DNA of 64,000 nucleotides, taken from the NCBI GenBank assembly GCA_024679065.1, contig JAGIQG010000003.1:54746001-54810000 (forward strand), written 5' to 3'. The stretch's first letter is position 1. Every line of letters begins with the position of its first letter. Shown one piece after another: positions 20,884-64,000 of the stretch. The notes below the pieces were generated by a model, which saw nothing but the letters and a program-made list of their open reading frames with translations, had not been told where the DNA came from and searched no databases. A program made the position numbers and the translations under genes. This stretch comes from Sphyrna mokarran. Taxonomy: Eukaryota.

Positions 20884-21089
20884 GGAGATGCCAGTGTTGG
20901 ACTGGGGTAAACACAGTAAGAAGTCTCACAATACCAGGTTAAAGTCCAACAAGTTTATTTGATAGTAGACCCATAAGCTTTCAGAACGCTGTTCCTTTGT
21001 CAGGTGAAGTAACAACATTCTGAAAGCTTGTGGGTTTACCATCAAATAAACTTGTTGGACTTTAACCCAGTGTTGTGAGACTTTTTACG
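20884..21089. mobile_element. Penelope-derived foldback element with a degenerate hammerhead motif
   Basis: Inverted arms gtaagaagtctcacaa...aagtccaacaagtttatttg / caaataaacttgttggacttt...gtgagactttttac. Minus strand CAC-CTGACAA-..-GAAA-GC-TT-ATG. A further single arm lies at about 21123-21210. Confidence 0.8.
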
Positions 21090-21299
21090 TGGAGTCGGGA
21101 GGACAGGGCTGTGTTTAAAGAGAGCTGAATGATTCCAAATAAACCTGTTGGGCTTTAACCTGTTGTGAGACTTCTTAGTGTGCCCATTCCAGTCCAAGGG
21201 CGACATCTCATTAAAGAGAGCGCATTCAGACGAAGCAGTCTTAGCCCATGTGTGTACCTGCTTGTAGCACTGCGGGCTGTTTGTTAAGGACTTCTCCCT

Positions 21300-21960
21300 G
21301 CACAGTGTATTGCTGTGCGCCTTGCTCAATGCTACTTCTCCAGTGTGTGTGTGTGTTGACGGGGGCAGCGGGGTGGGGGATGAGGCTTTATTTTAACTCT
21401 TCCCATCCACACGTGATCTGGACTCAGAACCAGAAGCTATTAATACAAAGGGCAGGACAACACAACATTCCGGCGGAGTGTTCAAACACTCAGTTGACTT
21501 GCTTTAGCAGAGGTGTTCATTCCAAACTTTCTGCTGTTGTCTGAGCTGCTGCACGGGGAAGGGGACAGTGCCCGAGAGATGCTGCCACTGAACCAGAGTG
21601 TGAACTGCAGCTCGGAGGCTGCGGCTCGGGGTGTGTGCGGCGAGGAAGGGGTTTTCTACCAGTCGGGCACGGCTGGCCACTTCACCCTCAGCCCCACGGG
21701 CCACTTGGTGACGGCCGTTTGCCTGGGGGTCATCGGCCTCCTGGGCTTCACCAACAATTTCCTGGTGCTGCTCCTCTTCTGCCGGTACCAGGCACTGCGT
21801 TCGCCCGTCAACCTGCTGCTGGCCAACATCTCGCTCAGCGACCTGCTCGTCTGCACCCTGGGCACCCCGTTCAGCTTCGCCGCCAGCACCCAGGGCCACT
21901 GGCTGATCGGGGACTTGGGCTGCGTCTGGTACGGATTCGCCAACGCTTTCTTCGGTGAGA
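21300..21960 (+). promoter_or_regulatory. Putative opsin promoter / CpG-rich first-exon region with an E-box
   Basis: CpG-dense, GC-rich exon 1 in an AT-rich, CpG-poor background. CACGTG at 21410-21415 and TATTAATA near 21439, both upstream of the ATG. Confidence 0.45.
21579..21954 (+). CDS. tmtops: TMT (teleost multiple tissue) opsin, OPN3/TMT family, coding exon 1 (N-terminus to TM3)
   Basis: Translates as MLPLNQSVNC...LSPTGHLVTAVCLGVIGLLGFTNNFLVLLLFCRYQALRSPVNLLLANISLSDLLVCTLGTPFSFAASTQGHWLIGDLGCVWYGFANAFFG, a close match to TMT opsins. First ATG at 21579 (the ORF-track start at 21513 is GTG). Donor G|GTGAGA at 21955, phase 1. Confidence 0.95.
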
Positions 21961-22375
21961 TTGACGGCAATAATCATTCAGCCTTCCCACGTCAGCATAG
22001 TAACTTTCAAAAGCGTGTAGACTAGAAAAGAGGGGAGAGGTGGGCACAGAAATCTTACATCCATCTTTTGCTATTGGAAGTGATAAATATGAAGCCTTAT
22101 TAAATATTAAGGAACAAGCAGTTAATTTGTAAATTTGCAGCTCAAGAGTTTATGAGCGAGAGATTGAACTACAGATGCATCAGGATTGGGGGTGGGGGAG
22201 GGGGGGTTGGAATGGGATTATCTGGATTATTTGTACCAGGAGGCAGTTACATTTTTCAGGATAAGGTCTTCTGATTTGGTCAGTGGTTAGGAATAAGAAG
22301 TGTGGCTTACAATGCGAGTAAGGTAGCTGGATTCTGAGGGCAGGATCCTCAGCCTTTTCAATTGTCACAGTAAAT

Positions 22376-22587
22376 AGTCTCACAACACCAGGTTAAATTC
22401 CAACGGGTTTATCTGGTAGCACCAGCTTTTGGAGTGTCGCTCCTTCTTCAGGAGAGTTTCCACTCACCTGATGATGAAGCAGTGTTCCGAAAACTCGTGC
22501 TACCAGATAAACCTGTTGGACTTGAACCTGGTGCTGTGAGACTACTTACTATGTTCACCCCAATCCAACGCCAGCTACTTCACATCA
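22376..22587. mobile_element. Foldback element with hammerhead motifs on both arms
   Basis: Plus strand CAC-CTGATGA-TGAAGCAGTGTTCC-GAAA-AC-TC-GTG (22465-22499). Minus arm CTGAAGA-AGGAG..CTCC-AAAA. Confidence 0.8.
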
Positions 22588-23142
22588 AGGTTACCATCGA
22601 CTTTTCAATTGTCCAACAGTTTTGAGACTTTTTTTCAGTTTATCTGTTAGTTAATGATGGTATTAGCACAATAGAGAACGATGACCTAAATTCAGGAAAC
22701 CAGGATATGGGGATGGTGGGGATAAAGATGTGAAATGGTAAAGGCAAGAAGTCACTTGTGAGAGTTGTGTATAGGCCCCCTAATAGTAACCACATGGTAG
22801 CATGAGGCAATAATTTAGAAATAATTGGAGCTTCACAGAAAAGCACAGCAGTAATCATGGGAAATTTCAATCTACAATCAGACTGCAAAAGTCAGATAGG
22901 CAAAAGCACCCTAGGTGAAGAGTTCATTGAATAATTTGAGATAATTTCTGAGAACCACCTATTCTGGAGCCAAGCAGGGAGCAGGCTTTACTGGAGCTAG
23001 TATTGTACAACAAGATGGTAGTAATTAATACTCTCAGGGAGTGAACTTACTCCCAGGTAGCAGCAACAATAGTGTGTTGAATTTTGGATTCAGTTTGAGA
23101 GAGAGGAATGGGTTGGAGACTGTGGCTGGAATTCCTCAGCCG

Positions 23143-23256
23143 TTCATGCCCGCTGCCACTGCAAGTGAGAACAGAGAATTTGGTGCTTGGCCAAATCTCT
23201 GTTCACTGCAGTGGGTGGGGAGAATCCTGGCTGCGTGTGAGATTGGAGAATCCTGT
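23143..23256 (+). mobile_element. Short MITE of about 115-135 bp (reverse copy at 59516-59650)
   Basis: ccaaatctctgttcactgc core is shared in reverse with 59516-59650; ggctggaattc...ggagaatcc ends. Confidence 0.7.
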
Positions 23257-23889
23257 TTTTAATTTTAAATGAGGGCAATTATGATGCTGTGAAAGGTGAG
23301 TTGGCTAAAAAGAATTGGCCAATTAGGTTAAAAGTTAGGTCAATAGCAAACATTTGAGGGGATATTTCAGAATGCACAAAATAGATAAATTCCAAGGGAC
23401 AAGAAAAAAATCCAAGGACAAACAATTTTTGGTATCAAACTTAAGGGAAAGGCTTAAACTTGTGCAAAGACGGGTAGAAGATTGGACAAACTATTAGGAA
23501 CAGCAAATGATAAGGAGGGAGAAATTAGAATACGAGAGAAAGTTAGTCAGAAATATAAAACTCAATAAGAGTTTTTATAAATATTTAAAAACAAAAAGAG
23601 TTAATGAAGTGAGCTTTGGTCTCATAGAATGTGAGTCTGAAGAATTGATAATGGAATGGCAGATGAATTGCACTGGCATTTTGCATCAGTCGTACAAGTA
23701 GCATCCCAGAAGCAGCTATAAACCAGGAAATGGGTGGAAAATTACAGTCAGCAAGTGGTAAACTGTTGAATCTGTGGGCTGACAAGTGTCCAAATCCTGA
23801 TGGGTACCAATTTAAGATTTTAAAAATAATCTTTAGTGAGATAGTTGATGTATTTGCTTTTATTTTCCAGAAGTCCCTAGATTCAGGGA

Positions 23890-24033
23890 TGATATGGAGA
23901 TGCCAGCTTTGGACTGGGGTAGGCACAGTAAGAAGTTTCAAAACAACAGGTTAAAATCCAAAGGTTTCTTTGGTAGTCTCACTCACCTCATGGAGGGGCA
24001 GTGCTCCAAAGCTTGTGTGGCCAAATAAACCTG
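23890..24033. mobile_element. Truncated foldback element with a 13-bp TSD
   Basis: CTAGATTCAGGGA at 23877-23889 and 24034-24046 flank the family sequence. Confidence 0.8.
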
Positions 24034-24164
24034 CTAGATTCAGGGAAGGTCAGCAGTAACAAAATGAATGAACCAAGAGCACACATAGAAATAAATAAAT
24101 ACAATCTAACAGCCATTATGGAGACATCGAGGAAGGTGGACATAGATTGAAAGCTGAATGTTGG

Positions 24165-24400
24165 TTTGGGTCACTATCTGTGTGGAGTTGGCACGTTCTC
24201 CCTATGTCTGCATGTGTTTCCTCCAGGTACTCCAGTTTCCTCCCACAGTTCCAAAGGCATGCTGGTTTGGTGTATTGGCCATATTAAATTCTCCCTCAGT
24301 GTAGCCAAACAAGCAATGGAGTTTGATGACTAGAGGATTTTCACAGTAATTTAGCTGCGGTGTTAATGTTTTTATGACTAATAAATTAGCTTTAATTTTT
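24165..24400 (+). mobile_element. V-SINE fragment
   Basis: V-domain core sequence. Confidence 0.75.
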
Positions 24401-25654
24401 AGGTGGCATTAGATTGGAAGATAGCAAATGTAGCTATTATTCAGAAAGGAGGGAGACAGGAAGCAAGAAACTACAGCTCAGCCAGCCTGTGCTATGGACA
24501 TAGAAGAACTGGTGGATGTAAATTTCCAGAAGGCATTTGATAATGTGCCAGATCAAATGATTTGCATAAACCAGAAGTTTGTGGTGTAGCAGTTAATACA
24601 TTGGCATGGATAAAATATTGGCTGATTAACAGAAAACACATAATAGGCATAAATGAGTATTTTTCATGTTGGCAAGATGTAATGAGCAGTGTGACACAGG
24701 GACCTCAACTGTTAACAACTTACATAAATGACTTAGATAAAAGAGTAGAAAGGATGGTTGCCAAATTTGCTTATGACACAAAGCTGGATGGGAAATTAGT
24801 TTGTGAGGGGGACATGAGGGGGCTCCAAAAAGCTGTAGGTAGATTTGATAAATGGCAAAGATGTGGCAAAATGGAATATAATGTGGGGAACTGTGAAACA
24901 ATCATTTTTTTCAGGAAGGAATAAAAAAAGGATATTATCTAAATGGTGAGAGACTTTGGAGCTCCAAGGTGCAAAAATAACCTGTAAGAATGTATGAATA
25001 AAAAAAGGCTATTATGTAATTACAGCAATTAAATAGGAAATCTAATAGAAAACAACCATTTATTGCAAGGAGAAATGAATATGGAAATAGAGTGGTTATG
25101 CTTCAGTTGTATGGGGCATTAGTGAGGCCACTTTTGAGATTTCTTATTTAAGAAAGGATGTAAATTCATTGGGAGTATTCAGAGATTAATACCTGGAATA
25201 GGTAAGTTGTTCCATGAGACATGTTGGACAGCCTAGGCATATATCGACCAGAATTTAGAAGAGTAAGAGGTAACTTTACTGGAGCATATAAGATCCTGAG
25301 GGATCTTTACAAAGTGGATGTGTAGAGGAATGTTTCCTCTTGTGGGAGAATCTAGAGCTAGGGGTGATTCTTGAAAAATAAGGTGTTGTCAATTTAAAAC
25401 GGAGATAAGGGAATTTTTCTCTCTCAGAGGTTTGTAAATCTTTGGAACCTTCCTGAAAAGATGATAGAAGCAGAGTGTCTGAACATTTTTAAAGCAGAGG
25501 TAGGTAGATTGTTGGTGAGAAAGGTGGTGATAGGTAATTGGGGGTAGGTGGATGCAGATTTGGAGTTACACATGACCCTTGTTCATATATTTATACTTTG
25601 GTATGTTCCGATATGCTGGCAATGTCCAAAGACTAGTTGAAGTCGGGGAAGTAC

Positions 25655-25905
25655 TTCGTAGTGCACGTAGTTATTATTGTAATACAAGAAAAGTGGCAGC
25701 TAATTCGTATAGGGCATGTCACATAAATAAGCGAGATTAATGATTGATTCGCAAACCCACTTGTTCTCTTTCAAATATTGCCATGGGATCTTTTTTTAAA
25801 TCCACGTAAGATGTCAGCCGATGTTCCCAACTAACATTTCATCAGAGTCAGCACCTTGGACGGTGCTTTCAGTGCTGTTCTCGAGTGTCACTCCAGATTC
25901 CGTTA
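25655..25905 (-). mobile_element. Deu-domain SINE-like remnant (related copies at about 5380-5520 and 62120-62290)
   Basis: tcaaatattgccatgggatcttt...gagtgtcactccagatt resembles the reverse of the DeuSINE core as I recall it. Confidence 0.55.
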
Positions 25906-26617
25906 TAAAAGTCGTGGAAATGTGGAAATGCGTGCTTGTATTGTCAAAACATAACACAAATGTTTTCAGTGAGATAAATTACGTACAATATAATGCTGAA
26001 ATCCAGGCACAAATCGCTGCATAATTTGGATTTCCTGGAATGAATCCCTATCACACTCCGCTCCAAAGTATTACCAGTCGACCACAAAGAGGATTGAGAA
26101 CTTACTATGTGTGTCATGCGAAAATGAGTTCTCAAATACCCAAAGCTGACTTTATTTTCAACATTTCACAAATTCTCACAATAAACATGGTTGATCATAC
26201 CCTTCGTTAGTAGAACATAATTCTCACTCTGGTGTTCACTTAAATAAATCCAGTGGATGACGCGAAACTGAAATTAAATGTTAGGCGTGGTAAAGGTAAA
26301 TGGAATTCGTTTTTTAAAGGTGCAGATTAAAGTTTTATCGGTGGAAAAGGAGCTTTGGAAACAAGACTCATTCTTTTTTATGTGTTTATCACTTCTGTTA
26401 AATAATAACATTTTCACAGCAGCTGATGAACGTAAAGACTCTGAAGATATTAAAACCTGGAATTCGCAGTCATGACACTATTAGGTCCAATTAAACTGTT
26501 GTGTTCCCCACACTCCAATAGCGAACTCATGTCACAATTTCCTAAGATTTTTTTTTAAATGAAGTAACTACAGTTAGAACTGGGGGCGGCGTGGCTAATG
26601 ACTGACATATCAAGGAT

Positions 26618-26836
26618 TCAGTAAGAATTTAGCAACACCAATTTTTAATCCAACCGATTTATTTGATAGTAAAAATTTCAACACTGTGACTGAGACTGCA
26701 TTTGCCGGAGGAAGACACAGAGTGTTGAAAGCTCGCAATTTTACTATCAAATAAATCGGTTGGATTAAAAATTGGTGTTGCTAAATTCTTACTGAGTTCT
26801 TACCACCCCAATCCAACGCCGGCATCTTTACATCAT
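26618..26836 (+). mobile_element. Foldback element with perfect 57-bp arms, a hammerhead variant and a TSD
   Basis: 26618-26674 is the exact reverse complement of 26739-26795. CATATCAAGGAT occurs at 26606-26617 and 26834-26845. Confidence 0.9.
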
Positions 26837-28014
26837 ATCAAGGATGCCAGAGCTAACACAGAATGGAAGAACAGGTCTGATTTTCCTGTAGTGTGGCATC
26901 TTTTGACCGACTCCATTAGCTCTCAGTGATATGGTGAAGGTGAGAAGACACTTGGCACCTTAATGTCCAATGGAATACCTTTAACCAAAGAGATTAAAGG
27001 ATTAAGAATGAATCAGCGGGAGACTTGACAAGACGAATTAGATACAAAACAGGCGCAGAGAGAAATAGAAACGGGAGATTTCAAAGGAAAGATAAAGAAG
27101 TCAGTTACAAAAAAGTTTTTAAAATCTAAAGTAATTCATAATCTGAAGGAATGAGGGTGCCCATTTGTAATTGTTAATCTTCTAGACAAGATCAGTTTAT
27201 TAATTGACAGTCTTCAACAATTATCTCACCGATAACTACTCAATTGAGCTTTCTGTGGGGATAGTTGATGTGCAAATACAGCAACTGTATACAAATCATT
27301 GCGACATGCTACTTTCCATAAAGTTGAAGCGGATTCTGTGGAGGCCATTGACAGTTCTGCGGGTGAGCTCTGCTTGATGCCGAACAGCAGTTGGAGTCAT
27401 GATTACGAACAGCATGGGTCAGTTCAGTTCAGAGGCTCTTAATTTCTTTCTAGTAAAATCTGGTCAAATTTAACAGAGGAAAGATTAAGAGCAGAGTGCT
27501 CCGATCTGAGGGTGGAGTGGATGGCAATGCCCAGCAACGATATGTCTAATTAGATTGCTGAGCCTATACTGAACCAGTGTATTAGTGTTCAGGGTCCTGT
27601 ATGTATGAGGTTTTCTACTCGAACTGTGTGAGATCCCGCATTCATTTTCAGTTGTACTCCATGCTCGGTGCAAAAGCTCAATAAATATTAATAAAGCCAA
27701 AACACAGCCGGGGAGATCGGAATGTCTGACCACCATAACATATATTTTATTCATTGAGGGTAAGACGGAGAGGAAATGAATCGGATAAATCAGTGAAATG
27801 TCACTCCGGGAGTGCTTACCCAAAGAAACTAGTTCTGGTCATTGGTTTTAACCAGGGCGGAGTTATGATAATTGCGTTTGAACTTTTTCAGCCCGGGGTT
27901 TTCCACGCTAGCGAATCATGTAATGAGTGACTCGCGGATTTCTGTCAAGTCGCATCTTTCGGGAGAAGCTCATGCATCTGCAAGATGACAATTTGTACGA
28001 TAGCTTCAGTGCGA

Positions 28015-29120: not shown

Positions 29121-29121
<1 letters not shown>

Positions 29122-29155: not shown

Positions 29156-29156
<1 letters not shown>

Positions 29157-30034: not shown

Positions 30035-30077
30035 CTCAAAGCTTCACACCTCATTTTAAACACTGCTCAAAGAGACC

Positions 30078-31020
30078 ACAGTGTTTAAGATGAGGTGCGC
30101 TCTCTTTGAACAGTGTTTAAGATGAGGTGCGCTCTCTTTGAACAGTGTTTAAGATGAGGTGTTGTGCTTTGAGCATTGTTTAAGATGAGGTGTGGGTCTT
30201 TGAGCAGTGTTTAAGATGAGGTGTGATTTTTGAGCAGTGTTTAAGATGAGGTGCGCTCTCTTTGAACAGTGTTTAAGATGAGGTGTCGTGCTTTGAACAG
30301 TGTTTAAAATGAGTTGTGGTGTTTTGAGCAGTGTTTTAGATGAGGTGTGGTGTTTTGAGCAGTGTTTAAGATGAGGTGAGGGGCTTTGAGCAGTGTTCAA
30401 GAGGAGGTGTGGCCTCTTTGAGCAGTGTTTAAGATGATGTGCAGTGTTTTGAGCAGTGTTCAAGATGGTATTTCATTCTTTGAGCAGTATTCAAGATGAT
30501 GTGTGATGCTTTGAACAGTGTTTAAGATGAGGTGCTGGGCTTTGAACAGCGTTGAAGATGAAGTGTAGTGTTTTGAGCAGTGTTTAAGATGAGGTGTGGT
30601 GCTTTGAGCAGTGTTTAAAATGAGGTGTGGTGTTTTGAGCAGTGTTTTAGTTGAGGTTGGTGCTTTGAGCCTTCTTTAAAATGAGGAGCGATGTTTTGAG
30701 GGGTTTTTGAGATGAGGTCCTGCACTTTCAGCAGTGTTTAAAATGAAGTGTGATGCTTTGAGCAGTGATTAATATGAGGTGTGGTATTTTGAGCAGTGGT
30801 TAAGATGCAGTGAAATATTTTGAACAATGGTTAAGGTGAGATGAGATGCTTTGAACAGTGTTTAAGATGAGATGAGATGCTTTGAACAGTGTTTAAGATG
30901 AGGTGTGATGCTTTGAGCAGTGTTTAAGATGAAGTGCAATGTTCTGAGCAGTGTTTAAGATGAGGTATTTTGCTTTGAGCTGTGTTTTAGATCAGGTGTG
31001 GTGCTTTGAGCAGTGTTTAA
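30078..31020 (+). repeat. 31-bp tandem satellite, about 30 units (consensus TTTGAGCAGTGTTTAAGATGAGGTGTGGTGC)
   Basis: Direct 31-nt periodicity, e.g. 30301 and 30332. An inverted unit lies at about 30035-30072. Confidence 0.95.
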
Positions 31021-32500
31021 AATGGGCTGACAAGTGGCAAGTAATACTCATGTCACACAAAATACCAGGCAATGATCATCACCAATAAGAGATGCTGTAA
31101 TCACCGCCCCTTGACATTTTGGCTGAGTAACAGCAAAATAGACTTTTATTTAAATGGTAAAAAATTGCAGCATGATATTGTGCAGAAGGACCTAGGTATG
31201 CAGGAATTTCAAGGAGTTAGTTTGGGGATGCAGCCGGTAATTATGAAGGCAAATGGAATTTTGTCCTTCATTCCCAGAGGGATGGAGTTTAAAAACAGTG
31301 AGGTTATGTTGTAGATACATAAGGTGCTGGTGAGGCCACACCTGGAGTTCTATGTACAGTTTTGGTCTCCTTACTTGAGAAAGGATATGCTGGTACTGGA
31401 GAGGACACAGAGAAGATTCACTCAGTAGATTTTGGAGTTAGAGAGTTGGCTTATAAGAGAGACTGAGTAGATTGGGGTTAGACTCATTGGAATTCAGAAG
31501 AATGAGAGGAAATCTTATAAACATATAAAATTATGAAGGGAATAGATAAGATAGAAGAGGGAGGTTGTTTCCACTGGTGTGTGAAACTAGAACTAAGGGG
31601 TATAGCGTCAAAATAATGGGAAGCAGATTTAGGACTGAGTTGAAGAGGAACTTCTTCACACAAAGGATTGTGAATCTGTGTAAATCCTTGCCCAGTGAAG
31701 CATTGAGGTTACCTCATTGAATGTTTTTAAGGTAAGAATAGATACCTTATTCTTACCTTAAGGTTTTTGAAGATAAAGGAATTAAAAGTTATGGTGAGCG
31801 GGCAGATAAGTGGAGCTGAGTCCCACTTAGATCAGCCATGATCTTATTGAATGGTGGAGCAGGCTTGAGGACCAGATAACCTACTCCTGCTCCTAGTTCT
31901 TATGTTCTTATATTGACATCCAATGTTGTAACAATCACTGAATCCCCCGCTGTCAACATCCTTTGGGTTACCACTGACCAGAAACTCAAATAGACTCACC
32001 ACGTAAAGATAATGGTTACAAGAGCAGATTAGAAGCTGGAAATACTGTGGGGAGTAACTGACCTCCTGACTCGCCGGAGCCCTTCCATCATCTACAAGGT
32101 ATAGATCAGGAGTGTGGTGGAATAAATGAGCGCAGCTCCAACAACACTCAAGAAGCCTGACACCATCCAGGACAAAGCAGCTCACTTGATTGGCACCATA
32201 TCTGCAAACATTGACATTCAGTAGCAGCAGTGTTTATTATCTTTAAGATACACTGTAGCAGTTCACCAAAGATCCTTAGACAGCATCTACCAATGCAGAA
32301 GGACACAACAGCAGATAAATGAGAACACTACCACTTGCAAGTTCCCCTCCAAGCCACTCACCATCCTGAGTTGGAAATATATCCCCGTTCCTTTGCAATC
32401 ACTAGGTCAAAATCCTAGAATTCCATGGCATTGTGATTCCACCCACTGCACATGGACTGCAGGGGTTCAAGAAGGTAGCTCACCACCACCTTGACAAGAG
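31021..32500 (+). mobile_element. 5'-truncated LINE (CR1/L2 group); its 3' tail continues at 44760-44831
   Basis: RT C-terminal remnant WADKWQVILMSHK, interrupted by a CR1 copy at 31118-31912. Tail ...ctcaccaccacc resumes after the provirus as aaggcaactag...gaataaataataaaa. Confidence 0.75.
31118..31912 (+). mobile_element. CR1 LINE 3' fragment nested in a LINE
   Basis: KANGILSFI, LVRPHLE motifs and a tcttatgttctta tail. Flanked by TTGACAT direct repeats (31111-31117 and 31913-31919). Confidence 0.85.
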
Positions 32501-44759: not shown

Positions 44760-44831
44760 AAGGCAACTAGAGAGGGGCAATGTACACTGACCGGCCAGCG
44801 AAGCCCATGTTCCATGAATAAATAATAAAAA

Positions 44832-44960
44832 AAGATGAGGTGCGGTGCTTTGAGCATTGTTTAAGATGAGTTGTTATGGTTTGAGCAGTGGTTTAAGATG
44901 AGGTGTGATCCTTTGAGTATTGTTTAAAAAAGGTACATTGTGTTAAGCATGTTTAAGATG
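44832..44960 (+). repeat. Continuation of the 31-bp satellite
   Basis: aagatgaggtgcggtgctttgagcattgtttaagatgag... resumes the array in register. Confidence 0.9.
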
Positions 44961-46072
44961 ATTTGATTTATTATTGTCACATGTATTAACATACAGCAAA
45001 AAGTATTGTTTTTTGTACACTATACAGACAAAGCATACCATTCATAGAGAAGGAATCATGAGAGTGCAGAATGTAGTATTATAGTCATAGCTAGGGTTAG
45101 AGAAAGATCAATTTAATGTCAGATAAGTCCATTCAAAAGTCTGACAGAAACAGGGAAGAAGCTGTTCATCAGTTGGTTGTTACATGACCTCAGACTATTT
45201 TATCTTTTTCTGACAGAAGAAGGTGGAAGAGAGAATGTCCGGGCTGCATGAGGTCCTTACTTATGCTGGCTGCTTTGCCAAGGCAGCGGGAAGTGAAGAC
45301 AGACTCAATGGATGGGAGGCTGGTTTGCGTGATGGATTGGGCTACGTTTCTGACTTTTGAGTTCCTTGCAGTCTTGGGCAGATCAGGAGCCATACCGAGC
45401 TGTGCTTTCTATGGTGCATCTTTAAAAGTTGGTGAGAGTCGTTAATGACATACCAAATTTCCTTATCTTCTGAGAAAGTAGAGGTATTGGTGGGCTTTCT
45501 TAGCTATAGTGTCAGCCTGGGGAGACATGGACAGATTATTGGTGATCTGGACACCTAAAAACCTGAAGCTCTTCATCCTTTCTATTTTGTCCCCATTGAT
45601 GTAGACAGGGGCATGTTCTCCTTTATGCTTCCTGAAGTCAATGACGATCTCCTTTTTGCGGACATTGAGGGAGAGATTATTGTCACTACACTAGTTCACC
45701 AGATTCTCTGTCTCTTTCCTGTGCTATATCTCACCATTGTTTGATATCTGACCCACTGTGGTGGTGTCATCAGCAAAATTGAAAATCGAATTGGAGGGGA
45801 ATTTGGCCACATAGTCTTAGGTGTATAAGGAGTAGTAAGGGGCTGAGAACACAGCCTTGTGGGGAACCGGTGTTGAGGATGATCATGGAGGATGTGTTGT
45901 TTCCAATCCTTACTGACTGTGATCTGTGAGTTAGGAAGTTCAGGATCCTATCGCAGAGGGAGGTGCTGAGGCCCAGACCATGGAGTTTGGAGATGAGTTT
46001 CATGGGAATTATGATGTTGAAGGCTGAGCTATAGTCAATAAATAGGACTCTGATTTAGGTGTCCTTGTTATC
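44961..46072 (-). mobile_element. Rex1/Babar-like LINE 3' fragment inserted in the satellite
   Basis: [16 protein letters not shown]..., FADDTTVG and SRCLGKAASISKD motifs; aataaaatcaaat-type tail. Confidence 0.85.
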
Positions 46073-46135: not shown

Positions 46136-46901
46136 TAAGTAGCTCTACTGCTTGGAATATGGCATTTGAAATTAAATTCATTGACTTTTGTTACGCTGCA
46201 TGCCTTGGGCCTTTTTTCCTGACATTGATTTCTACAACTATGTCTTCCTACAGTAATCTGGAATATTTCCTGATACCTCAATAATCTCGTCATTTTTCCT
46301 CTTCCACTTCCAATGCATCGTGTGCAGCCTCAGACTACCTTTAATATGTTCTGTGCTTTGTTGTACCATGATTTACACTTCCTGATGTTCAAACTCTCCT
46401 GCAATCCATTCCAGCACCTTTAAGAAATTCAGACTCACCTAATTAGAGCTAACCTGTCACAATCTTTGGTTCTCTGCTGAATGCAGTCACTCAGTAGTTT
46501 GTTTAGTGCTGGACTGCACTTAGCAAACAAGCAAATTGACACTAAGTTCATGTGCTATCTGCTCCAGAAGTAATAAACATTCACGATTTGCACTTCACGA
46601 TCCATTATCAAGGGCAATCAAACTCTTCAAACCCAAGTATGCCTTATTTGAATGGACACATGAGATGAATTTTATTGTCATATTGTAACTTGGCCTTAAA
46701 ACTCGGCAACCCATTCAGAAGTCCGCTGATCTCAACAGGACTGGAAAATCCCAACAGTGTCAATGAAAAAGTCAGTGGAGGCAGTAAACAATTTTGTGAG
46801 AAATCTAAAAACCATCTATATTCAATCCCTGTTTTCCATTTGTATTATTAGTTTCCATTACCATCACTAGCTCATATTGGCATTATTCGTCTAGTATGAC
46901 A

Positions 46902-47158
46902 TCTCACAACACCAGGTTAAAGTCCAACAAGTTTATTTGATGGTAAACCCACAAGCTTTTGGGGTTTGCCCCTTTGTCAGGTAGTGGAGAGTTCTGGTCT
47001 CAAAGAGCCGTTTGACCAGAACTCTCCACTCACCTGATGAAAGGGCAAATCCAGAAAGCTTGTGGGTTTACCATTAAATAAACTTGTTGGACTTTAACCT
47101 GGTGTTGTGAGACTTCTTACTGTGTTTACCCCAGTCCAACGTTGGCATCTACACATCA
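46902..47158 (+). mobile_element. Foldback element with arms of about 100 bp and an intact hammerhead core
   Basis: Arms 46902-46999 and 47014-47112. CAC-CTGATGA-AAGGGCAAATCCA-GAAA-GC-TT-GTG at 47031-47064. Confidence 0.9.
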
Positions 47159-47504
47159 TGATTATTCATTTACCCTGTAGTTCTTTGTTTGACTATTCAT
47201 GGGCGAGAAGAATTAATGAAACAAGAATTTCAGATACGATAAAATGCAAAAAACCAACAACTGCTCACATTAAAAAAATACTTTTATACAGAAGGAGCAT
47301 ATCTAGCATCACACCTGACTTAAAATTCTGCTAATATTCATGAGTCTAGTTGAGATGAATATAAATCATCCTTACCAAGAATTTGTTTTGGTGAGGACAC
47401 TACTGAATTCAGATATGCAAATTCTTATGGAATTCCTTATATAATTTAAATATATCCATATATTTTTCTAAACACTCAGTAAAGTGTTCCATTTTTCCTT
47501 GCAG

Positions 47505-47833
47505 GTACTGTATCATTAATATCTTTGGCTATATTGTCATATGATCGTTATGTTACAATCACTGAAGCGACAGAAGCTGATAGAACGAACTACCGTAAGG
47601 CATTTGCTGGGATTTCATTTTCCTGGATCTACTCATTGATGTGGACATTGCCCCCTCTGTTCGGATGGAGTCACTACGGTCCTGAGGGACCAGGAACAAC
47701 ATGTTCTGTGAACTGGTATGCAAAAGACATCGCCAATGTGTCTTATATTTTGTGTCTCTTCACTTTCTGTCTGGTCATCCCCTTTCTGGTGATAGTCTAC
47801 TGTTATGGAAGAATGCTGCTGACAATAAAGAAG
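47505..47833 (+). CDS. tmtops: TMT opsin coding exon 2 (TM3 to TM5)
   Basis: Acceptor ttttccttgcAG|GT completes the phase-1 Gly. Reads GTVSLISLAILSYDRY...WIYSLMWTLPPLFGWSHYGPEGPGTTCSVNW...CLFTFCLVIPFLVIVYCYGRMLLTIKK. Donor AAG|GTAAGT at 47834, phase 0. Confidence 0.95.
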
Positions 47834-50537: not shown

Positions 50538-50539
50538 GA

Positions 50540-54939: not shown

Positions 54940-55092
54940 GTAAGAAGTCTCGCAACACCAGTTAAAGTCCAACAGGTTTATTTGGAATCATAACTTTTTT
55001 GGAGCATTGCTTCTTCATTAGCTTGTGATTCCAAATAAACCTGTTGGACTTTAATCTGATGTTGAGAGATCTCTTACTGTGCTCATTCCAGT
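54940..55092. mobile_element. Foldback element, centrally deleted
   Basis: aaagtccaacaggtttatttggaatca / tgattccaaataaacctgttggacttt arms. Confidence 0.8.
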
Positions 55093-56514
55093 ACAACATG
55101 AATAGTCATGCCTGTGCAATCAGTGGCTTCCTAGATCTATGGGAATACAGTCAAAGAAATGAATCCAACTGTCTGCTCACTGGAACTATTCTTTACTGGG
55201 ACCTGCAATTCAAGTTCCTCCTCATGCTATTTGTCAATCTGAAACTTTCAAAGTTTAAAATAAAGTTGTATCCACGCAAGAACTCTGTTGAATATTTGCC
55301 AGCGGGAACTGAGACACGAGTTTCAACGCGTGAGTTTTTATTCAGCTGGGGCAATGACAAATTTAAATACCCACCTGTCCTGGAGTTTAATCTGGCTTCC
55401 ATTTCATTGGTAATTTTCACAACCCAGGAAACCCATTCTGATTGAGTGAAATATGGAGGCACATTAAAAACAATATAAAAATACTTCATTAATGCTTTCC
55501 AGAACTAATGCTTTCATTCATCCAGTTAGAAAATATCTGTCTTCAACAAAACTTCCATCAGAATCCCAGGCATCTTTGCTAATTTGGAAGTTGCCAAAAT
55601 GAGAGCTTAGTTATAGTACTGAAAAATAAAAATCAGATTTTGCTCCCCACCCATCCCCAACCCAGCCACTCTTCGGATTAAAATTCATTCCTAACTCTGT
55701 GACCAGATACAGGGAGAGTAGAGCTCTGCAAACTTCCTCTCTTCACTGGAGAACTTTGTCCTTTCACTTCCACTTCTGGCAGTCTACCATTCTCTTGCAC
55801 ACGACAGACCCCAGGAAGTGGCAGTAAAAGGGGTGCAAAAAAGAGATCATGTACCAGGATCCAAACTCATCCCCATTGCTATTTGTAGGCAGTAGTCAAC
55901 AAAAGAAGGTGGGGGTGGGAAACACCAGTTAGGTGGTGAATGGGGTGGTAGATGTCAACTCCCTTAATTTCATTCAACATTTATACCATTTTTCCTGGAT
56001 TCATACAGATCTTCCACTAAAATGACAGCAAATGAATAGACATCTTCTGTATAAGTTGACCCTTTAAATTGCCCCCATGCTGTGATTCTATTGTATGATA
56101 GAATCATGCAATTGTCATACTAATACTGACAAATTTAGAAGCAAGACAATCATATCTTAACATGATTGCTTTGAAATGATCAAAGTGTGTTTTACTAAAT
56201 GGTTGGGGCTGCCACAGTGTAAAGAATCGCACGGTTATATCACTGTTGAAGTATTTCATTACTTAATTATGGATAACTACTTTATCAAAATGACTGAAAT
56301 AAATTGAATTTCTTGATTATTTAGTAGATTGTAAGAACATGAGACAAGAAGAGTCAGTTTAGTTAATCAGTATTTAATTTTATACTATGCTAACGATTAT
56401 TCTTCAACTACAACGTGCTCACACTTGGCCTTTCCGTTAATCACCTGAACTGACACATTGACCCAAATTTTCCAGATTCCGGATCATTGGAGATGGGACG
56501 CAAGGTGGGACGTA

Positions 56515-57275
56515 GAAAAGTAGAAACATAGAAGATAGGAGTAGGAGGAGGCCATTCAACCTTTCAAATCTTACTGCCATTCGTCACAATCATGGCTGAT
56601 TGTTTAACTTCTTGATCTAATCCTGCTTCTTCCTTATAACCTTTGATCAATTCACCAAAGTGCTATATCTAACTGGCTCTTGAATACATTCAATGTTTTC
56701 AAATCAACTATTTTGTGGTAATGAATTCCACAGGCTCACCACTCTTTGAGTGAAGGAATGTTTCGTTATTTATGCCCTAAATGGTCTACCCTAAATCCTC
56801 AGAATGTGACGCCTGGTTCTGGACACATCCACTATTGGAAATTTCTTTCCTGCATTTATGCTTTCCAGTCCTGTTAGAATTTTATAAGTCTCTGTGAGAT
56901 CCCCTTCATTTGTCTGAACTCCAGTGAAAACTCCAGCGAAAACAATCCTAACTTAGTCACTCTCTCCTCATACACCAGAATCACCCTGATAAACCTTTGC
57001 TGCACTCCCTCGCGAGCAAGAACATCCTTCCTCAGAAAAGGAGACCAAAACTGCAAACAATATTCTAGGTGTGGCCTCACCAAGGCCCTGTATAATTGCA
57101 ACAACACATCCTTGCTCCTGTACTCAAAACTCTCACAATGAAGCCCAGCATACCATTTGCTTTCTTTACCATCTGTTGCACCTGCCTGCTTACCTTCAGC
57201 GACTGAGAAGGACACGCAGGTCCCGCTGCACACTCCCTCTCCCAATTTATAGCCATTCAGGTAGTAATCTGCCTG
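56515..57275 (-). mobile_element. CR1 LINE 3' fragment
   Basis: LYRALVRPHLEYCLQFWSP motif and agaaacatagaa tail. Confidence 0.9.
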
Positions 57276-59264
57276 AAACACATCCTAATGGGTTTGAGAT
57301 GTGTGTCTAATGTGTATTTCAGATCCTCAGAAGCTCTGATGTACAAATATATGTGAAAATTGCTCAGAAAGTACAAACTTTTCAATGGGCTGATTTCTAC
57401 TGCCTGGGACCCTCTGTGAATGTCCCAAACCTAAGCTCTGGGCATGAATCAGTAGAAATTATCTACATCCTTACTCTGGGAGTGCCACATTGTTTAATAT
57501 CTAGTCTAACTTGAGTGTAACTCAACTGAGTCCAAAATCAAACCCCCCTGCCCCAAATCAATCCTGAGCCAGCCTGACTTGACTATTCTCCTGACCATCC
57601 GAATACTCCCCCAACTACCTAACTATTCCACGACCACCATTCCCACTATACAATTACTACCAACCAGGCCAAACTACCACCTATTCACTTTGATTTGTTC
57701 TCATGACCATTCTACTATCAATCCGACCAGACCCAGCTACTACCGTGACCATCCAACCAGACCAAACTAACCTCCCCCCAAGCCCAACTTTACTACAACT
57801 ACGCCTCATCCACCCAGCTGTCCTCATCCACCTAACCACCAACTCACTCATCCTTTTGCTTAGTCACTTACTGAAAAATGAGGACTGAGAGTTCCTGATC
57901 TGCCAAGGCATGTTTTCCTGAGGCAGAGGTGGCTCACCATTGGCCACCAGCAGGATCTTCCAGTCCCAACAAAGTCAGTGACCATACGTGTTGGGCCAAC
58001 CAGAAGGAGGTTGCCTTCAGTGGGACTGGAACGCCCAAAAAATTCTGCTCAAAGGTTTCTTTAAAGGGGAAGTGTTCCCCCTTCCATTTCTTTTTGCAGC
58101 CAACAGTCTCCCCCAAGAGACTGATACTTTAATGATTCAGCTGGGATCAGAAGGAGCGACTAAAATATTGTGAAAGAGTCAGGTTACGGAACAGGATGGC
58201 ATTAACAAACTCAGCATTGACTCTGAATGGAAGATTTAGGCCATTATTCCAAATTCAATGACATTTTCATCACTGAGAGCAATATCTTTTCCTCCTTGAA
58301 TTAAGATGTCCAAGATCACAATCTAATGTTGTTGCTTTGACCCTGAACTGAATGCCTCCAGAAGCTCTGTAAACCAACAATTAAAATTCTGCAAAATCTC
58401 TTCACAGGACAATCATACTTAATAACAGCATAACCTTAAATGTAGCTTAAGAGTTCTTTTCAAGCTGCACCTGCCGTTAATGAAGCAATCTAGTCGAGGT
58501 GTTACTAGTGATGTCCACTAGAACTCTGCCACAGAATTGGCAAGGGTCCAACAATGGAAATCTGTTGATCTCAGGCAGGAATTTCCGGTCTCACCCAAGA
58601 GAGGCCATAAAATCTGGCCTAATCCCTGTTTGAATCATAGTTGTTGTAAAATGAGAACATTCATTCTCAGAAGAGTAGGTATCAGATAAAACCAATAGTG
58701 TCTATTTGAAACCTACATTTTGTTTCAGGTTAGGTTCATGCTTATTTTTCAAAATTTGTTCTTGGGATGTGAGCAAACCATTACTTAATGCTCATTCCCC
58801 AGAATGATGAAGGCAGTAAAAGTCAACATGTAGCATCGCATTTGAGTCACATAATTTTACCTTAGCATCTATATTTAGCTTGTTCTCTTACCCAGTTAGA
58901 TCTGAGATAGATTTTTGTGTAATCTCAGCAAAGTTTGTCAACGTTGGAGTATAAATCACACTTCAAATTTTGGCACACATTCTCCAAATTCACAATTCTG
59001 TGCCTGTTTTGTATTGGAGAATGCTGAGACTTAAAGGAATCTCCATTCTCTGGGATGACTGGATGTGTCACAACATTTATGCCGTATGTTCCCCCATGAG
59101 CAATTCAATTGAAAAAAATTGAAAGTTCACTTTATATTCACATCAGCTTTAGTACAAGAACCCTTTGTTTTAGTCTTACTTAGATGGCATCAAAACAGCT
59201 CTAAACAATAAAATATAGAGGTTACATGGACCTTTAAAATGTAACTTATAAAATCATAATAAAT

Positions 59265-59475
59265 AGGCAAAATACTGTGGATGGTGCAGATCTGAAAAAA
59301 CAGAAAATGCTAGGAATACAATGCAGCATCTGTGGAGAGAAAAGCAGTTAATGTTATCATTATAACATTATTAATGATCAATATTTATTGTTACAACAGT
59401 CAAAAGTACATTACATAATAGAGATCTCTGTTCATAGTTATGAAGTTAACTTCAGTTCTGGAGAAAGATGCTAAC
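59265..59475 (+). mobile_element. Fragment of another shark Penelope-associated repeat (related pieces at about 7250-7332 and 10830-10910)
   Basis: aaaacagaaaatgct...gcagcatctgtggagagaaaagcagttaatgtt motif is shared among the three sites. Confidence 0.55.
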
Positions 59476-59809
59476 CTTTACAATGGTCTATGCAAAAGTT
59501 TTAGGAATGATTTGAGCCGGCGTTCTCTGACTGTTCCTGATGGTCGGGTTCTCTAGTTCCATAGCAGTGAACAGAGATTTGGCTGAGTGCCAAATTATCC
59601 ATCCTCATTTGCAGTGGCAGTGGGGCATGAATGGCTGGAGAATTCTGGCCACTGTATTTCTAATTTACCAATATGGGTGAACTTTCAATTATAGGGGCTT
59701 AAGAAGTCATTCTTAAGCCTTCTCTGCCATTTAACTTAATCATGGCTACTTCCAGTACTATCCTTATACCACTTGATGTCATTAGATATCCAGAAATATA
59801 TCCACACAA

Positions 59810-60104
59810 GAACCATAGAACTATTGAATCCTTGCAGTGCAGCAAGATGCCTTCTGGCCTATCAAGTCTGCACCATTTCTTCAAAAGAGCATTTCACCAA
59901 GAACATTTTCTCTGCCCAATCCCAGTAATCCCACACATTTACCGTTGCTAATCCACCTAACCTATATATCTTTGGACTATGGGAGGAAATAAAAGCACCT
60001 GGAGGAAACCCACACAAACATGGGGGAATGCACAAACTCCACATCGTCAGTCTCCTGAATCAAACCTGAGTCCCTGGTGCCATAAGATTGCAGTGCCACT
60101 CTGC
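59810..60104 (-). mobile_element. V-SINE
   Basis: tctttggactatgggaggaaat...aaactccac (reverse V-domain). Confidence 0.8.
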
Positions 60105-60420
60105 TTTGAAATGCTGAATGACTGAATGCCAACAGCCCTTTGAGATAAAGAATTCCAAAGATTTTCCATCACTAGCTGAGCTAATTCCTCCTCATCTTTG
60201 TCCTACATGGTCTATCCTTTATTGTGAGACTGTGCACCTTCATTCTTGACTCCTAATCAAAGGAAACACGCATCCAGCATCTACCCTGTTGAATCCTATA
60301 AAAAATATTAAACACTTCAATGAGATCAATTCTGCTAAACTCTGGAAAATATGGGCCCAATCTCCTCAATCTTTCCTCATTGGTCATTTCAGACACCCCA
60401 GGAATCTTTTAGTAAACCTA
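60105..60420 (-). mobile_element. CR1 fragment
   Basis: Degenerate CR1 RT C-terminal sequence. Confidence 0.6.
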
Positions 60421-60846
60421 GACAGAGCCCTGGCTTTGCAGCTCATCTGCCTATTATAGAAATTGCCTGATTTTTTATTTCCATTGCATTCAGTGGTAAC
60501 AGATATCACATGTTTTCCATAACAGATAATCCACCAGTTAAGTTATGTTTCATCCAGGTGACAATCAAAATCTACCCAACTGCTTTTAACGCTTAGCCAT
60601 GACACTTGAATTTAATTTTTAGTCATATATATTTACTCTAAATGTGATTTTATCAAGGGATAGCATTCCTTTTTTCAACAATGTCCTTTAGGAAAATTGA
60701 TTCTTGAAGTAATTTGTTACAAATGTTTTAAAGTTGCTGTAAATCACTCTGGCATATCAATAGAGTACATTTCCATTACAGTAGTACCAGCAACTACTAC
60801 TGAGTATCACTTCAAGATGAAGGGAGGACGGAGCATGAAATAGCAT

Positions 60847-61998
60847 GGACAGGATTCTCTATGGGTTCTGCTTGCTTCGTGTCTTTAAGCTGGGGTTGAC
60901 CAAAGTCTCAGATGCCTAAGTGAAGGTCCTTAAGTGTCCACTTAATGATTTTTCCTGTCCAGCCTCAACTTTTAGGCTAGCAGGCAGCTGTTAGTTCAGT
61001 TGGGAGGTGGTTGGAAGCACATAAGCAAAGATAGTTGGATCTTGGATGGGAAGAGTAGGATATGCCTCCAGTAGAAGTCTCCTTCTGACTGGTGGTGCCT
61101 TCCCCTTAAGGCCAGATCTCCCCTTCCTTTTTCCCATTGAAGACACCAAACATGACCCTTATGACCCCACCACCCCCCAGCCTTCCCTTTCCTCTCTATC
61201 CTGGGGCACCTATCACTGACTTTATTTTCTGGCACCTGGCACTGAGTGTCAAAGCCTCTTCTGGTCTCGCATGTTCTGCCTTTAGAGACTGGAGAGCCTC
61301 TGCCAATCTGTTTCATCCGCAACTCTCCAAAGTGGGACTTCCCCCAAGTGAGGAATGGCTCATACCAATAAATGTTAGTTAGTGTGTAATATGGCACCAG
61401 AGCAACTGGAGCCAAATGTGTTCCCCACCAACTCTTTGGGGGCATAGCCTTACCATAGTGAAATTTCAGATCTTGAAGATGGCCAATTAAGAAGTCTTCT
61501 CCATGTTCATCATCCAAATAAGGATGGCTGATGGGTCCCCAAAGTGAGAGGCATTAAGATGTGGATAAATGGACACTCCGATGGGAGAGGTGTGTGCTAC
61601 TGAAGCATTTAAGGGACAATGAGGACATAGCAAGGCATATGGGAACGGCCTTATTGTCTGGCTCTCATTGGTGAGAAGGAACTTCTCCAGAGGATTGCTT
61701 GTAGTCATACCTGTGCCCTTGATCCCTATGGACTTTAGGATGCATGCCTGGGAGCACCATTTGCCTTGAGTTTTGGACACAGCAGGAAGCCTGTCCACCA
61801 CAGATCTCAGCAGCAACTGCATCTTGCCCTTAAATTAGTCACTCAAGAAGTCCTAAATGTCTTCTTTCCACTGCCAAGCCTTTGCTCCCTGCTGCCAATA
61901 TTTGTCTGAGGTAAGAAGCACAAGGATAGGAGATAACCTGGCACATGATGCTTAGAATCTACTCAAATCTGCCTCCACAGCGACAGAAAATTCTATCC
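60847..61998. mobile_element. TIR-bounded non-autonomous DNA element
   Basis: ggacaggattctct ... agaaaattctatcc imperfect inverted ends. Confidence 0.45.
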
Positions 61999-62589
61999 AT
62001 CACCTGGAATTCAGTTATTCCTAGTAACTGAGATCTGTTAATGTCCCGCAGTACAAATAAAGTAGTTTTAGTAAGGTAGATTAATGAAAAATTCTGTATT
62101 ATAAAACATATTTACATTTTTGTGAGGGATATTAAACCAACTGACCCCTCAGATGGACATAAGTGGTTTCATGAAATAACAAAGAATAGGGGAGGAGTAT
62201 CTTATCATTTATAATATTTATCCCTCAGTTAACACCTCAAAGCAGAATATCTGACAATTTATTTAATTGCTGTTTAAATGAGCTTGCTTTCTCAAATAGG
62301 CATTTTTGTAATACATTTAACGAGGCCATGTTATGGACTTCTTGGAATACAAGCTTTCTGATTAAGGAATTAATGGCTTTTCTAATCAGGGAGCCCTACA
62401 TGTGCGCATAATGTGGAGTATCAGGATTACAACCACTCTGGGTTTATAATCTGTACAAGAAAGTATCTATATAAATGTCACTTATTTTGTAAATAAATCT
62501 AAATTTAGTGAAGAGACACCAGCCTTGGTGGAGTTATTCAATTTTCTACATCAGAGCAGCAACAAATTCTGAAGGATTTTCAAAAATCC

Positions 62590-63165
62590 TTCACAATGCT
62601 TGCCTTTGTTGGTCAGAGTATTGAATACAAAAGTCAGAATGTCATACTGCAGCTTTAGAATACTTTGGTTAGGCTGCATTTAGAATTCTGGTCATCACAT
62701 TACAGGAAGAATGTGGAGGCTTGGGTGGGTACATAAGGGGCTTACCAGCTCAAAGGAGAGGCTGGATAAAATAGAGTTGTTTTCTCTGGAGTAGTGGACT
62801 CTGAGAGGAGAGCCGAAAGAAGTCTATAAAATTATGAAAAACATGGAAAGAGTTGACAGAATCTTTTCCCCAGAGTTGAGATGTTTAATGCTAGGGGGCA
62901 GGTACTTAAGGTGAGAGAGGGAAATGTCAAAGGATTTGTGAGGGGCAAGTTTTTTACACAGAGTGGTATCTGTCTGGAGGGCAGCCAAGGCTAGTGGTGC
63001 ATACGAAAGGAGTGTTTAAGAGGTTTTTAGATAAGCACATGAATATACAAGGAATAGAGAGATATGGGCCAAGGGCAGACAGAAGGGATTAGTTCGATTT
63101 GGTATCATGTTTGGCACAACATTGTAGGCTATAGGGCCTGTTGCTGTGCTGTACCGTTCAATGTT
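62590..63165 (+). mobile_element. CR1 LINE 3' fragment
   Basis: MLAFVGQSIEYKS, LVRLHLE and FFTQ motifs; gggcctgttgctgtgctgt tail. Confidence 0.85.
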
Positions 63166-63514
63166 CAGTGTTCTTTGTACAATTCTTTAGGTATCCTGAG
63201 ATTCAGAATGGTGACATACAAATGAAAGTTTGTCTTTTTTACTTTATTCTGGGAATTGGCATTTCCAGCTGTTGTTTAATCTGGTATTTAATCAAGACCA
63301 GTACACTTGACATTGTTACAGTTCAGTACAGACCACATGGGAAAGCTGGAAGAAAGTGACGAGACGTTTATCAAAGATAAGATTCATTTTACATTAGGTA
63401 ACCTCCTCGTGAAAACAGGAAAGTTGAAAATAAACTGAGTGAAATAAAACTGCTCAGGTGAATCTGTTAATACTATTCAATTTCCTGCTCAGCAAACAAA
63501 TGATTCAGTTATCC

Positions 63515-63900
63515 AGTTTGAAAAAGACTTAATGTTCAGTAAATCAAACCTCAGGGATACCAAGGTGTAATTTTAGTAATATGTAAACTCCTTGATGTTT
63601 CTTTATCCCCAATTACAACAATAGTCATGTTAATTTTAGAGAATAACTGTAAAATCTATTGTTTAGAAAGAGTTGTGAAACAAGAACTGAGAAGGAGGGA
63701 AGAACTCAAGGAAATTACAATTACCAAGGAAGTGTTGCTTACCATATTGTTGGAATGAGGGTTTAATAAGTACCCAGGTCCTAATGGATTTCACCCTAGG
63801 GTCTTAAAAGTAGCGGCTGGTGAGATAATTTATGCATTGGTTTAAATTTTCACTAGATTCAGGAAAGGTTTCATTAGATTGGAAAACAGCTAAAAAGAAC
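63515..63900 (+). mobile_element. CR1 ORF2 fragment
   Basis: KYPGPNGFHPRVLK and SLDWKTA motifs. Confidence 0.7.
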
Positions 63901-63908
63901 TTTCCATA

Positions 63909-64000
63909 CACCTGACAAAGGAACAGTGTTTCTGAAAGCTTATGAGTTTACTATCAAATAAACTTGTTGGACTTTAACCTGGTGTGGTGAGACTTCTTAC
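63909..64000 (+). mobile_element. Foldback-family arm with a degenerate hammerhead, running off the window end
   Basis: CAC-CTGACAA-AGGAACAGTGTTTCT-GAAA-GC-TT-ATG followed by caaataaacttgttggactttaacctgg. Confidence 0.75.

Follow-up and report, generated by a model that had tools for sequence, protein, structure and literature searches.

Short head-to-head inserts around a shark receptor gene as probable pLTR copies of a Neptune-type Penelope-like element

What are the short, mostly mirror-image inserts that recur around a receptor gene of the shark Sphyrna mokarran, and how were they made? The stretch analysed here (the window) comprises 64,000 nucleotides of contig JAGIQG010000003.1 (assembly GCA_024679065.1, forward-strand positions 54,746,001 to 54,810,000), and the inserts lie at eight loci, called e20 to e63 below (Table 1). 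An earlier note on this DNA had read them as a non-coding, retrozyme-like foldback family with minimal hammerhead ribozymes, mobilised in trans by Penelope-like elements (PLEs), and not as miniature inverted-repeat transposable elements (MITEs) of a DDE transposon. Our results support the PLE link, the non-coding nature, the production in trans and the rejection of a DDE MITE. The term retrozyme-like family found no support, as the copies are head-to-head pairs with junctions that are all different and no tandem units. We consider it probable that the inserts are decayed copies of the pseudo-long terminal repeat (pLTR) of a Neptune-type PLE, assembled during insertion by an autonomous element whose protein acts in trans.

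Arms, outer ends and target sites

All eight places noticed earlier (seven elements and an arm at 21123) carry the repeat. A profile search of the 64 kb detected 14 related arms, arranged as six head-to-head pairs and two single arms, with E values from 3.8e-37 to 1.9e-9 and the next match at 0.46; the profile was built from 13 of these 14 arms and, being self-derived, shows the completeness of the set and not its independence. The inserts measure 85-268 bp over all loci and 144-268 bp for the pairs. Left (L) and right (R) arms of one element are identical in 72/82 (e20), 72/89 (e22), 56/56 (e26), 99/114 (e46) and 49/59 (e54) aligned columns, and 33 of the 45 arm-to-arm substitutions are transitions. 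The arms of one element also share subfamily letters, with 89-92% agreement within e22, e26 and e54 and 56-82% to the others. This result indicated that both arms come from one source.

Each arm has its 3' end on the outside, and these ends fall at two fixed positions, T1 and T2, which are 36-40 nt apart and lie 83-88 nt (T1) and 120-127 nt (T2) from the first C of the hammerhead core. The segment between them, a tail of ~40 nt, was found on exactly one arm in all six pairs (five tails reach T2, one is partial) and on both ends in none (0/6). The untailed arm ends at T1 in five of the six pairs. Independent drawing of ends at even odds would give five mixed T1/T2 pairs of five with a probability of 0.03.

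The same end points were seen genome-wide. The repeat is very abundant in four shark-related runs, with 88,966 (X1), 51,703, 92,947 and 1,576 matching contigs, where matching contigs are not equal to copies and depth does not measure copy number. At T1 (47121-47123), loose ends whose flanks are unrelated (agreement 0.33-0.35) accumulate in three of the four runs, with 778+885, 465+449+552 and 598+625+689 such ends among the matches listed. T2 is sharp: the X1 depth falls from 53,845 to 502 across 22583-22591, similar drops were observed in the other three runs, and the loose-end agreement is 0.37-0.54. No contig 99% identical to the e22 stretch was found in X1, and such a gap proves nothing about polymorphism.

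Significant target-site duplications (TSDs) of 11-13 bp flank five of the seven testable loci (e63, cut by the window end, was excluded), so the earlier count of two copies with 12-13 bp TSDs was too low. Each score was compared with 400 random position pairs, counting those with the same or a better score (null pairs in Table 1). No significant TSD was detected for e54, whose best score was matched by 150/400 null pairs. The target of e23 is present once in a paralogous copy of a sequence resembling long interspersed nuclear elements (LINEs), at 63820-63869, where the alignments are weak (E 0.05-0.06) but in register.

The inner junction is different in every pair (six pairs, six junctions; inner-end profile positions 7/11, 5/2, 40/3, 41/2, 3/2 and 11/35), and the inner ends of all pairs lie within ~40 nt of the hammerhead core. 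The junctions are offset with short overlaps, two bases long in e20 and e54, and are not perfect palindromes. Head-to-tail tandem units were found at 0/8 loci. With a different junction in every copy, a master foldback unit is not seen. The differing junctions together with the lack of tandem units indicate that the inserts are neither retrozymes nor MITEs and were likely not copied as a unit.

The hammerhead motif and the Penelope-like source

The motif CAC-CUGAUGA...GAAA-GC-UU-GUG quoted in the earlier note was located in e46R, and its assignment to the minimal type I hammerheads of the PLE kind holds at family level, where the core boxes, stems I and II and the palindromic helix III were all found. 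The minimal hammerhead is spanned by 8 of the 14 arms; five arms are without the motif and e54L is without the 5' stem I. None of the 14 arms has an intact motif, and both core boxes survive in two (e22R and e46R), each with a stem II mismatch. A descriptor scan of the window returned no perfect minimal hammerhead and two motifs in which the core is intact and stem II has a single mismatch (22468 and 47034); in 300 block shuffles the mean was 0.023, with one motif in 7/300 and two in 0/300. The motif had also been described as mirrored on the opposite arm. This stands for two of the six pairs (e22 and e46), where both arms have it complete, and fails for e20, e23, e26 and e54, where one arm is without part or all of it.

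Across the eight motifs (e54L, with no 5' stem I, was left out) the stems covary, with 90% of cells paired against 26-60% in slid controls, and two-sided changes were found in five of the eight stem pairs. Because the arms of one element are not independent, this covariation rests on about four independent stem types, among which e26 differs in both stems. In the loose-end consensus of runs X2 and X19, stem II is fully paired and the core end is intact, so the motif of the source element was intact. Of the 35 kinds of change listed in X1, 23 are C>T or G>A, and such transition-rich changes are as expected for neutral decay. In our reading the hammerhead is a passenger of the pLTR, predicted to be inactive in these copies.

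Whole elements fold as single long hairpins (-101 to -180 kcal/mol), in which the hammerhead pair probability is ~0. When a lone sense arm was folded, the hammerhead pairs were also ~0 in two of the three motifs tested (0.12-0.14 for stem II of e26R); this fold test is therefore weak and shows only the dominance of the long hairpin. As the mirrored motif lies on the other strand, each transcript has one hammerhead and no dimer can form in cis. An Rfam scan, uninformative for minimal hammerheads, showed no hammerhead family among its 10 matches at E up to 5; the matches were all hairpin-driven microRNA models, far below gathering scores.

Two side observations concern the motif. The antisense of stem I and the core start is a consensus splice donor at 22462-22470 (-) and 47028-47036 (-), and this site is mutated in all three host-sense left arms that span it. 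The outer arms of e26 are identical (young or homogenised), yet its sole hammerhead has U4->G and its own stems; e26 could be a distinct subfamily or itself a defective source.

The window holds no Penelope open reading frame (ORF), as the earlier note had said: tblastn with four PLE ORF proteins gave no match better than E 0.48, and a PLE motif regular expression gave two chance matches only. The link to an autonomous element that the note had called for could be made through a chain of predicted proteins. A peptide profile of the tail, translated in frame from seven aligned arms, matched 4 of 1.84 billion proteins in a full HMMER scan, P0004 included; word-based protein searches with the tail peptide gave no match, and the full scan alone succeeded. 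P0004 joins the tail peptide (18/22 identical to e46R) to a PLE ORF segment, which is 87% identical to the Mustelus asterias ORF P0005 and 53% to the ORF P0008. Used as a query, P0004 led to four longer proteins among 22 candidates. P0008 is a complete ORF of 881 amino acids with RVT_1 (E 3.8e-10), DKG, CX2-5CxxC and GIY-YIG/CCHH-type motifs, those of the linker and endonuclease at 743, 781, 795 and 826, and over 334 residues it shares 54% identity with P0005. The Heptranchias perlo protein P0006 has the final six residues of the tail directly before an ORF start homologous to P0005 residue 1. The e22 tail continues ~14 nt into a decayed ORF start, whose match to P0006 is weak alone (6/13, E 0.069).

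Through P0004, P0005, P0006 and P0008, the repeat thus adjoins an ORF with reverse transcriptase (RT) and GIY-YIG endonuclease in autonomous copies. Judged by the motifs of its relative P0008, the linked ORF would be that of a Neptune-type PLE with Neptune/Nematis layout. P0008 has both Neptune features, the CX2-5CxxC linker between RT and C-terminal endonuclease and the CCHH in the endonuclease, as defined in PMC8557442, where Nematis also has the linker. Exact DNA patterns had no match in viral contigs, metagenome contigs or prokaryote genomes, and our search found no DNA locus for P0005. P0004 comes from a 630-base ENA contig, and its fusion of an N-terminal PLE ORF segment to the pLTR tail suggests an internally deleted mini-PLE.

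Insertions of endonuclease-positive PLEs are described with an inverted truncated pLTR, a one-sided 30-40 bp tail and a TSD (PMC8557442, PMC3846280). Here the inverted 5'-truncated pLTR stands head-to-head at six of the eight loci, the tail is found at one end only in 6/6 pairs (one partial; 36-40 nt), and TSDs at 5/7 testable loci are joined by the single-copy paralogous target of e23. The earlier note had mentioned the inverted terminal pieces of PLEs; the layout does fit the described PLE insertion, but the note used it as background and not as the explanation. The likeness extends to Pen2/Pen2a of Adineta vaga (PMC3846280; scheme in PMC8557442 Fig. 2), with a head-to-head truncated pLTR, one-sided tail, TSD and frequent 5' truncation. 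Unlike in Pen2/Pen2a, both halves here are 55-150 bp and ORF-less, and the TSD is 11-13 bp versus 8-10 bp in the rotifer cases compared.

The motif resembles the metazoan PLE hammerheads of Cervera and de la Pena 2014 (PMC4209133) in CUGANGA with an extra base, GAAA, a short stem I, a 4-5 bp stem II opening G-C and a palindromic four-base helix III, and differs from them in that every copy here is damaged. The turtle entry in Fig. S3 of that paper shares the GC insert and is followed downstream by a similar CCAAAUAAA run; opposite-strand hammerhead pairs 100-700 bp apart are mentioned there for Schistosoma, and its supplement file 2 gave no shark entry (file 1 was outside the search). In PAc, the Poseidon element of Anolis carolinensis (Frangieh 2024, PMC11167929), two internal end points likewise define the tail. 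The distance from core to T2 is close to the RT start of PAc, 111-118 nt into an ORF beginning at stem II, and the both-strand cutting by PAc fits the TSD-flanked mirror layout. Unlike PAc, with its ORF from stem II, the element here apparently has its ORF from the tail end, and the related ORF has a Neptune-type linker.

Non-LTR retrozymes, as described in bioRxiv 10.64898/2026.07.22.740005, share the non-coding nature, the type I hammerhead, the origin from PLE pLTRs and the occurrence in a chondrichthyan. However, they are head-to-tail tandem units each with a hammerhead and need two consecutive hammerheads, whereas inverted pairs or single arms were found here and such units with complete hammerheads at 0/8 loci. 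Nor were the matching terminal inverted repeats and uniform size of a DDE MITE found, the tail being one-sided and the pair sizes 144-268 bp. Our literature search found no paper on shark PLE mini-foldbacks; Repbase and Dfam, which were outside that search, may catalogue the family. In conclusion, the family is one more case of the known PLE insertion footprint, in miniature, and an ordinary finding.

How the inserts may have been built

In vitro, PAc cuts and extends both target strands, starting at two internal sites that define the tail; it is modelled as a dimer and uses uncleaved RNA, and its hammerhead needs protein and is dispensable for insertion (PMC11167929). For the shark inserts, a similar dual priming is probable, with the stubs as short by-products of an autonomous PLE that would start from each of the two cut strands at its two internal sites. 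The starting point is that the arms are pLTR sequence ending at T1 and T2, with T2 at the ORF start codon. The GIY-YIG endonuclease would cut both strands 11-13 nt apart, as suggested by the TSDs and by PAc in vitro, and each 3' end would prime one cDNA, one from T2 and the other from T1. Both cDNAs would end, by run-off or stalling, no more than ~40 nt from the hammerhead, the transcript likely starting just upstream of it; with such a start, short stubs would be an obligatory by-product of internal initiation. The cDNA ends would join through 1-3 nt of microhomology, followed by fill-in, and the copies would then decay, as is partly seen, largely by transitions at CpG sites. Two of the 14 inner ends, those of e21 and e23L, lie only a few bases from where cleavage is predicted, no more than a hint at ribozyme cutting of the template. 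In a bolder and less likely version, the stubs are an obligatory PLE product: a dimeric enzyme would prime both cut strands at the same time, one protomer at T2 and the other at T1 of the 5' pLTR of the transcript, and synthesis would mostly end where the transcript begins and, in the few cases of e21 and e23L, at a ribozyme cut.

Mirror arms could also arise by snap-back, in which one cDNA or antisense RNA folds back and self-primes the mirror arm, and the endonuclease resolves the product at T1 and leaves a one-sided tail. Self-priming has been proposed for head-to-head PLE junctions (PMC3846280), and the tail has been ascribed to endonuclease resolution (PMC8557442). Snap-back accounts together for the shared subfamily letters of the arms and the lack of double tails, and the full identity of the e26 arms fits it. 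However, snap-back from a tailed cDNA would place the unique loop on the arm that has the tail, and in e23 and e54 the loop is on the untailed arm. The longer inner end belongs to the tailed arm in e20, e22 and e26 and to the untailed arm in e23 and e54 (e46 was unreadable); its presence on either arm (three tailed, two untailed of five) is what two separate cDNAs would give. This loop-side pattern favours two cDNAs over snap-back. Offset junctions with short overlaps in place of perfect palindromes, and the extension of both target strands from the same two sites by PAc (PMC11167929), also speak against snap-back, which we regard as possible but rather doubtful. A recombination remnant is unlikely: here a longer insertion (inverted pLTR, pLTR, ORF, pLTR) would have lost its ORF between the direct pLTRs, like a solo LTR. 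The full layout is described for Pen2a_Av, with two direct pLTRs and an adjacent inverted one, a 31-bp tail and a 9-bp TSD (PMC3846280), and its collapse yields exactly this structure with the TSD kept. Against this, none of the eight loci has an ORF or a remnant of one, the direct repeats would measure no more than ~100-150 bp, and two inner ends lie downstream of the core and are shorter than a whole pLTR.

The earlier note took the inserts for a retrozyme-like, non-autonomous foldback family whose transcripts cleave themselves and which PLE proteins reinsert as a unit. This reading agrees with ORF-less copies of very high abundance (88,966 contigs in X1), with the intact motif in the X2 and X19 loose-end consensus, and with the existence of PLE-derived non-autonomous elements (PMC8557442, PMC3846280, bioRxiv 10.64898/2026.07.22.740005). 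Six junctions in six pairs, no tandem units, one sense hammerhead per transcript, stable whole-element hairpins with hammerhead pairs near zero and no intact motif in any arm make it very improbable. A DDE-transposon MITE with an incidental hammerhead likeness would explain short, ORF-less inserts with inverted repeats and TSDs; it is already largely refuted by unequal ends with a one-sided tail in 6/6 pairs, TSDs of 11-13 bp, covarying hammerhead stems and a tail that abuts the PLE ORF start, and is hardly credible.

Several points weigh against the PLE reading and the dual priming proposed with it. Only six pairs are available, and e23 and e54, which have the longer untailed arm, are also the most damaged. 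No significant TSD was found for e46 and e54. The depth drop at 22587 coincides with private mismatches of e22, and the depth after T1 is roughly half of that before it in three runs, whereas in X19 the ratio is 1.1 (depth not being copy number). The direct match of e22 to P0006 is weak by itself, the link from pLTR to ORF is a chain through predicted proteins and not one DNA locus, and P0008, only ~54% identical to the shark ORFs, is a relative and not a proven donor.

Host locus and meaning

The window contains a rhodopsin-family receptor gene on the + strand (7tm_1 Pfam match), which we take to be TMT-opsin-like. Its first intron is 25.5 kb long, and a motif scan found no further exons in the window. 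The Pfam six-frame scan covered 20-34.7 kb (14.7 of 64 kb) and gave 7tm_1 as its sole match; it was insensitive, missing LINE remnants visible in translation. Four elements (e22, e23, e26 and e46) are within the first intron, e20 and e21 are directly upstream of the gene, and e54 and e63 are downstream of exon 2. At 20883-21210, e20 and e21 are two independent insertions with separate TSDs and a gap of 24 bases between them; they lie 0.4-0.7 kb upstream of the receptor ATG, likely in the promoter or 5' region.

Other repeats were also observed. A 31-bp minisatellite of ~30 units occupies 30074-31090, with a short second array at 44828-44929, 14 kb off. Fragments at 18181-18956 and 45202-45955, which we take to be LINE-like, are 80-87% alike and 27 kb apart, and additional inverted pairs, presumably also of LINEs, lie at 14-15, 31 and 37-39 kb. 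Both e23 (23877-24046) and e63 (63853-63900) sit in copies of one LINE-like sequence, in which their sites are ~45 bases apart.

Table 1. Positions of inserts, hammerhead motifs, target-site duplications and receptor exons in the window.
Feature	Position	Strand or arms	Remarks
e20 head-to-head pair	20883..21088	tailed arm - (20883-21007), untailed arm + ending at T1	~0.5 kb upstream of host ATG; arms 72/82
e21 single truncated arm with tail	21126..21210	+	5' end within few bases of predicted cleavage site
e22 head-to-head pair	22367..22600	tailed arm +	tail reaches ~14 nt into decayed ORF start
e23 pair	23890..24033	tailed short arm -, + arm cut before T1	inside LINE-like copy
e26 pair, divergent subfamily	26618..26833	tailed arm +	outer arm parts 56/56 identical
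e46 longest pair	46893..47160	tailed arm +	arms 99/114
e46 one-sided tail between T1 and T2	47122..47160	+	ends at ATG, in frame with PLE ORF start
e54 short pair	54940..55099	untailed arm - with damaged core, + arm with partial tail	no significant TSD
e63 single arm with hammerhead motif	63884..64000	+	cut by window end
e20L hammerhead motif	20971..21007	-	G8->A
e22L hammerhead motif	22419..22455	-	G12->A, UH->UG
e22R hammerhead motif	22465..22499	+	core boxes intact, one stem II mismatch, helix III AGCU palindrome lost
e23R hammerhead motif	23983..24018	+	three core lesions
e26R hammerhead motif	26702..26738	+	stem I and stem II letters differ; U4->G
e46L hammerhead motif	46949..46984	-	G8->A, G12->A
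e46R hammerhead motif (quoted copy)	47028..47067	+	core intact, first stem II pair broken
e63 hammerhead motif	63908-63945	+	G8->A
e20 TSD	20870-20882 / 21090-21102		12/13, one transition; 3/400 null pairs
e21 TSD	21115-21125 / 21211-21221		11/11; score 11 in 3/400 null pairs
e22 TSD	22354-22366 / 22601-22613		13/13; 2-3/400 null pairs
e23 TSD	23877-23889 / 24034-24046		13/13; 2-3/400 null pairs
e26 TSD	26606-26617 / 26834-26845		12/12; 2-3/400 null pairs
e46 candidate TSD	46882-46893 / 47161-47172		10/12, not significant; best automatic score in 39/400 null pairs
Receptor exon 1	21579-21954	+	boundaries from splice sites
Receptor exon 2	47505-47833	+	boundaries from splice sites

As debris the inserts are ordinary, and they may preserve a record of the way the element inserts; their value is mechanistic. 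The way in which inverted pLTRs and one-sided tails arise in PLEs is unsettled: self-priming is one proposal (PMC3846280), and the insertion steps are called 'yet to be validated' in PMC11167929. With abundant copies of 100-270 bp, fixed outer ends and variable inner junctions, the end pairing, the loop side and the 5' ends can be counted genome-wide. Such counts tell dual priming from snap-back and from recombination, and can reveal any cutting of the template by the ribozyme in vivo. If the stubs are obligatory products, the shark copies, in their tens of thousands, would report on dual priming in vivo and would hold the first genomic trace of PLE hammerhead cleavage.

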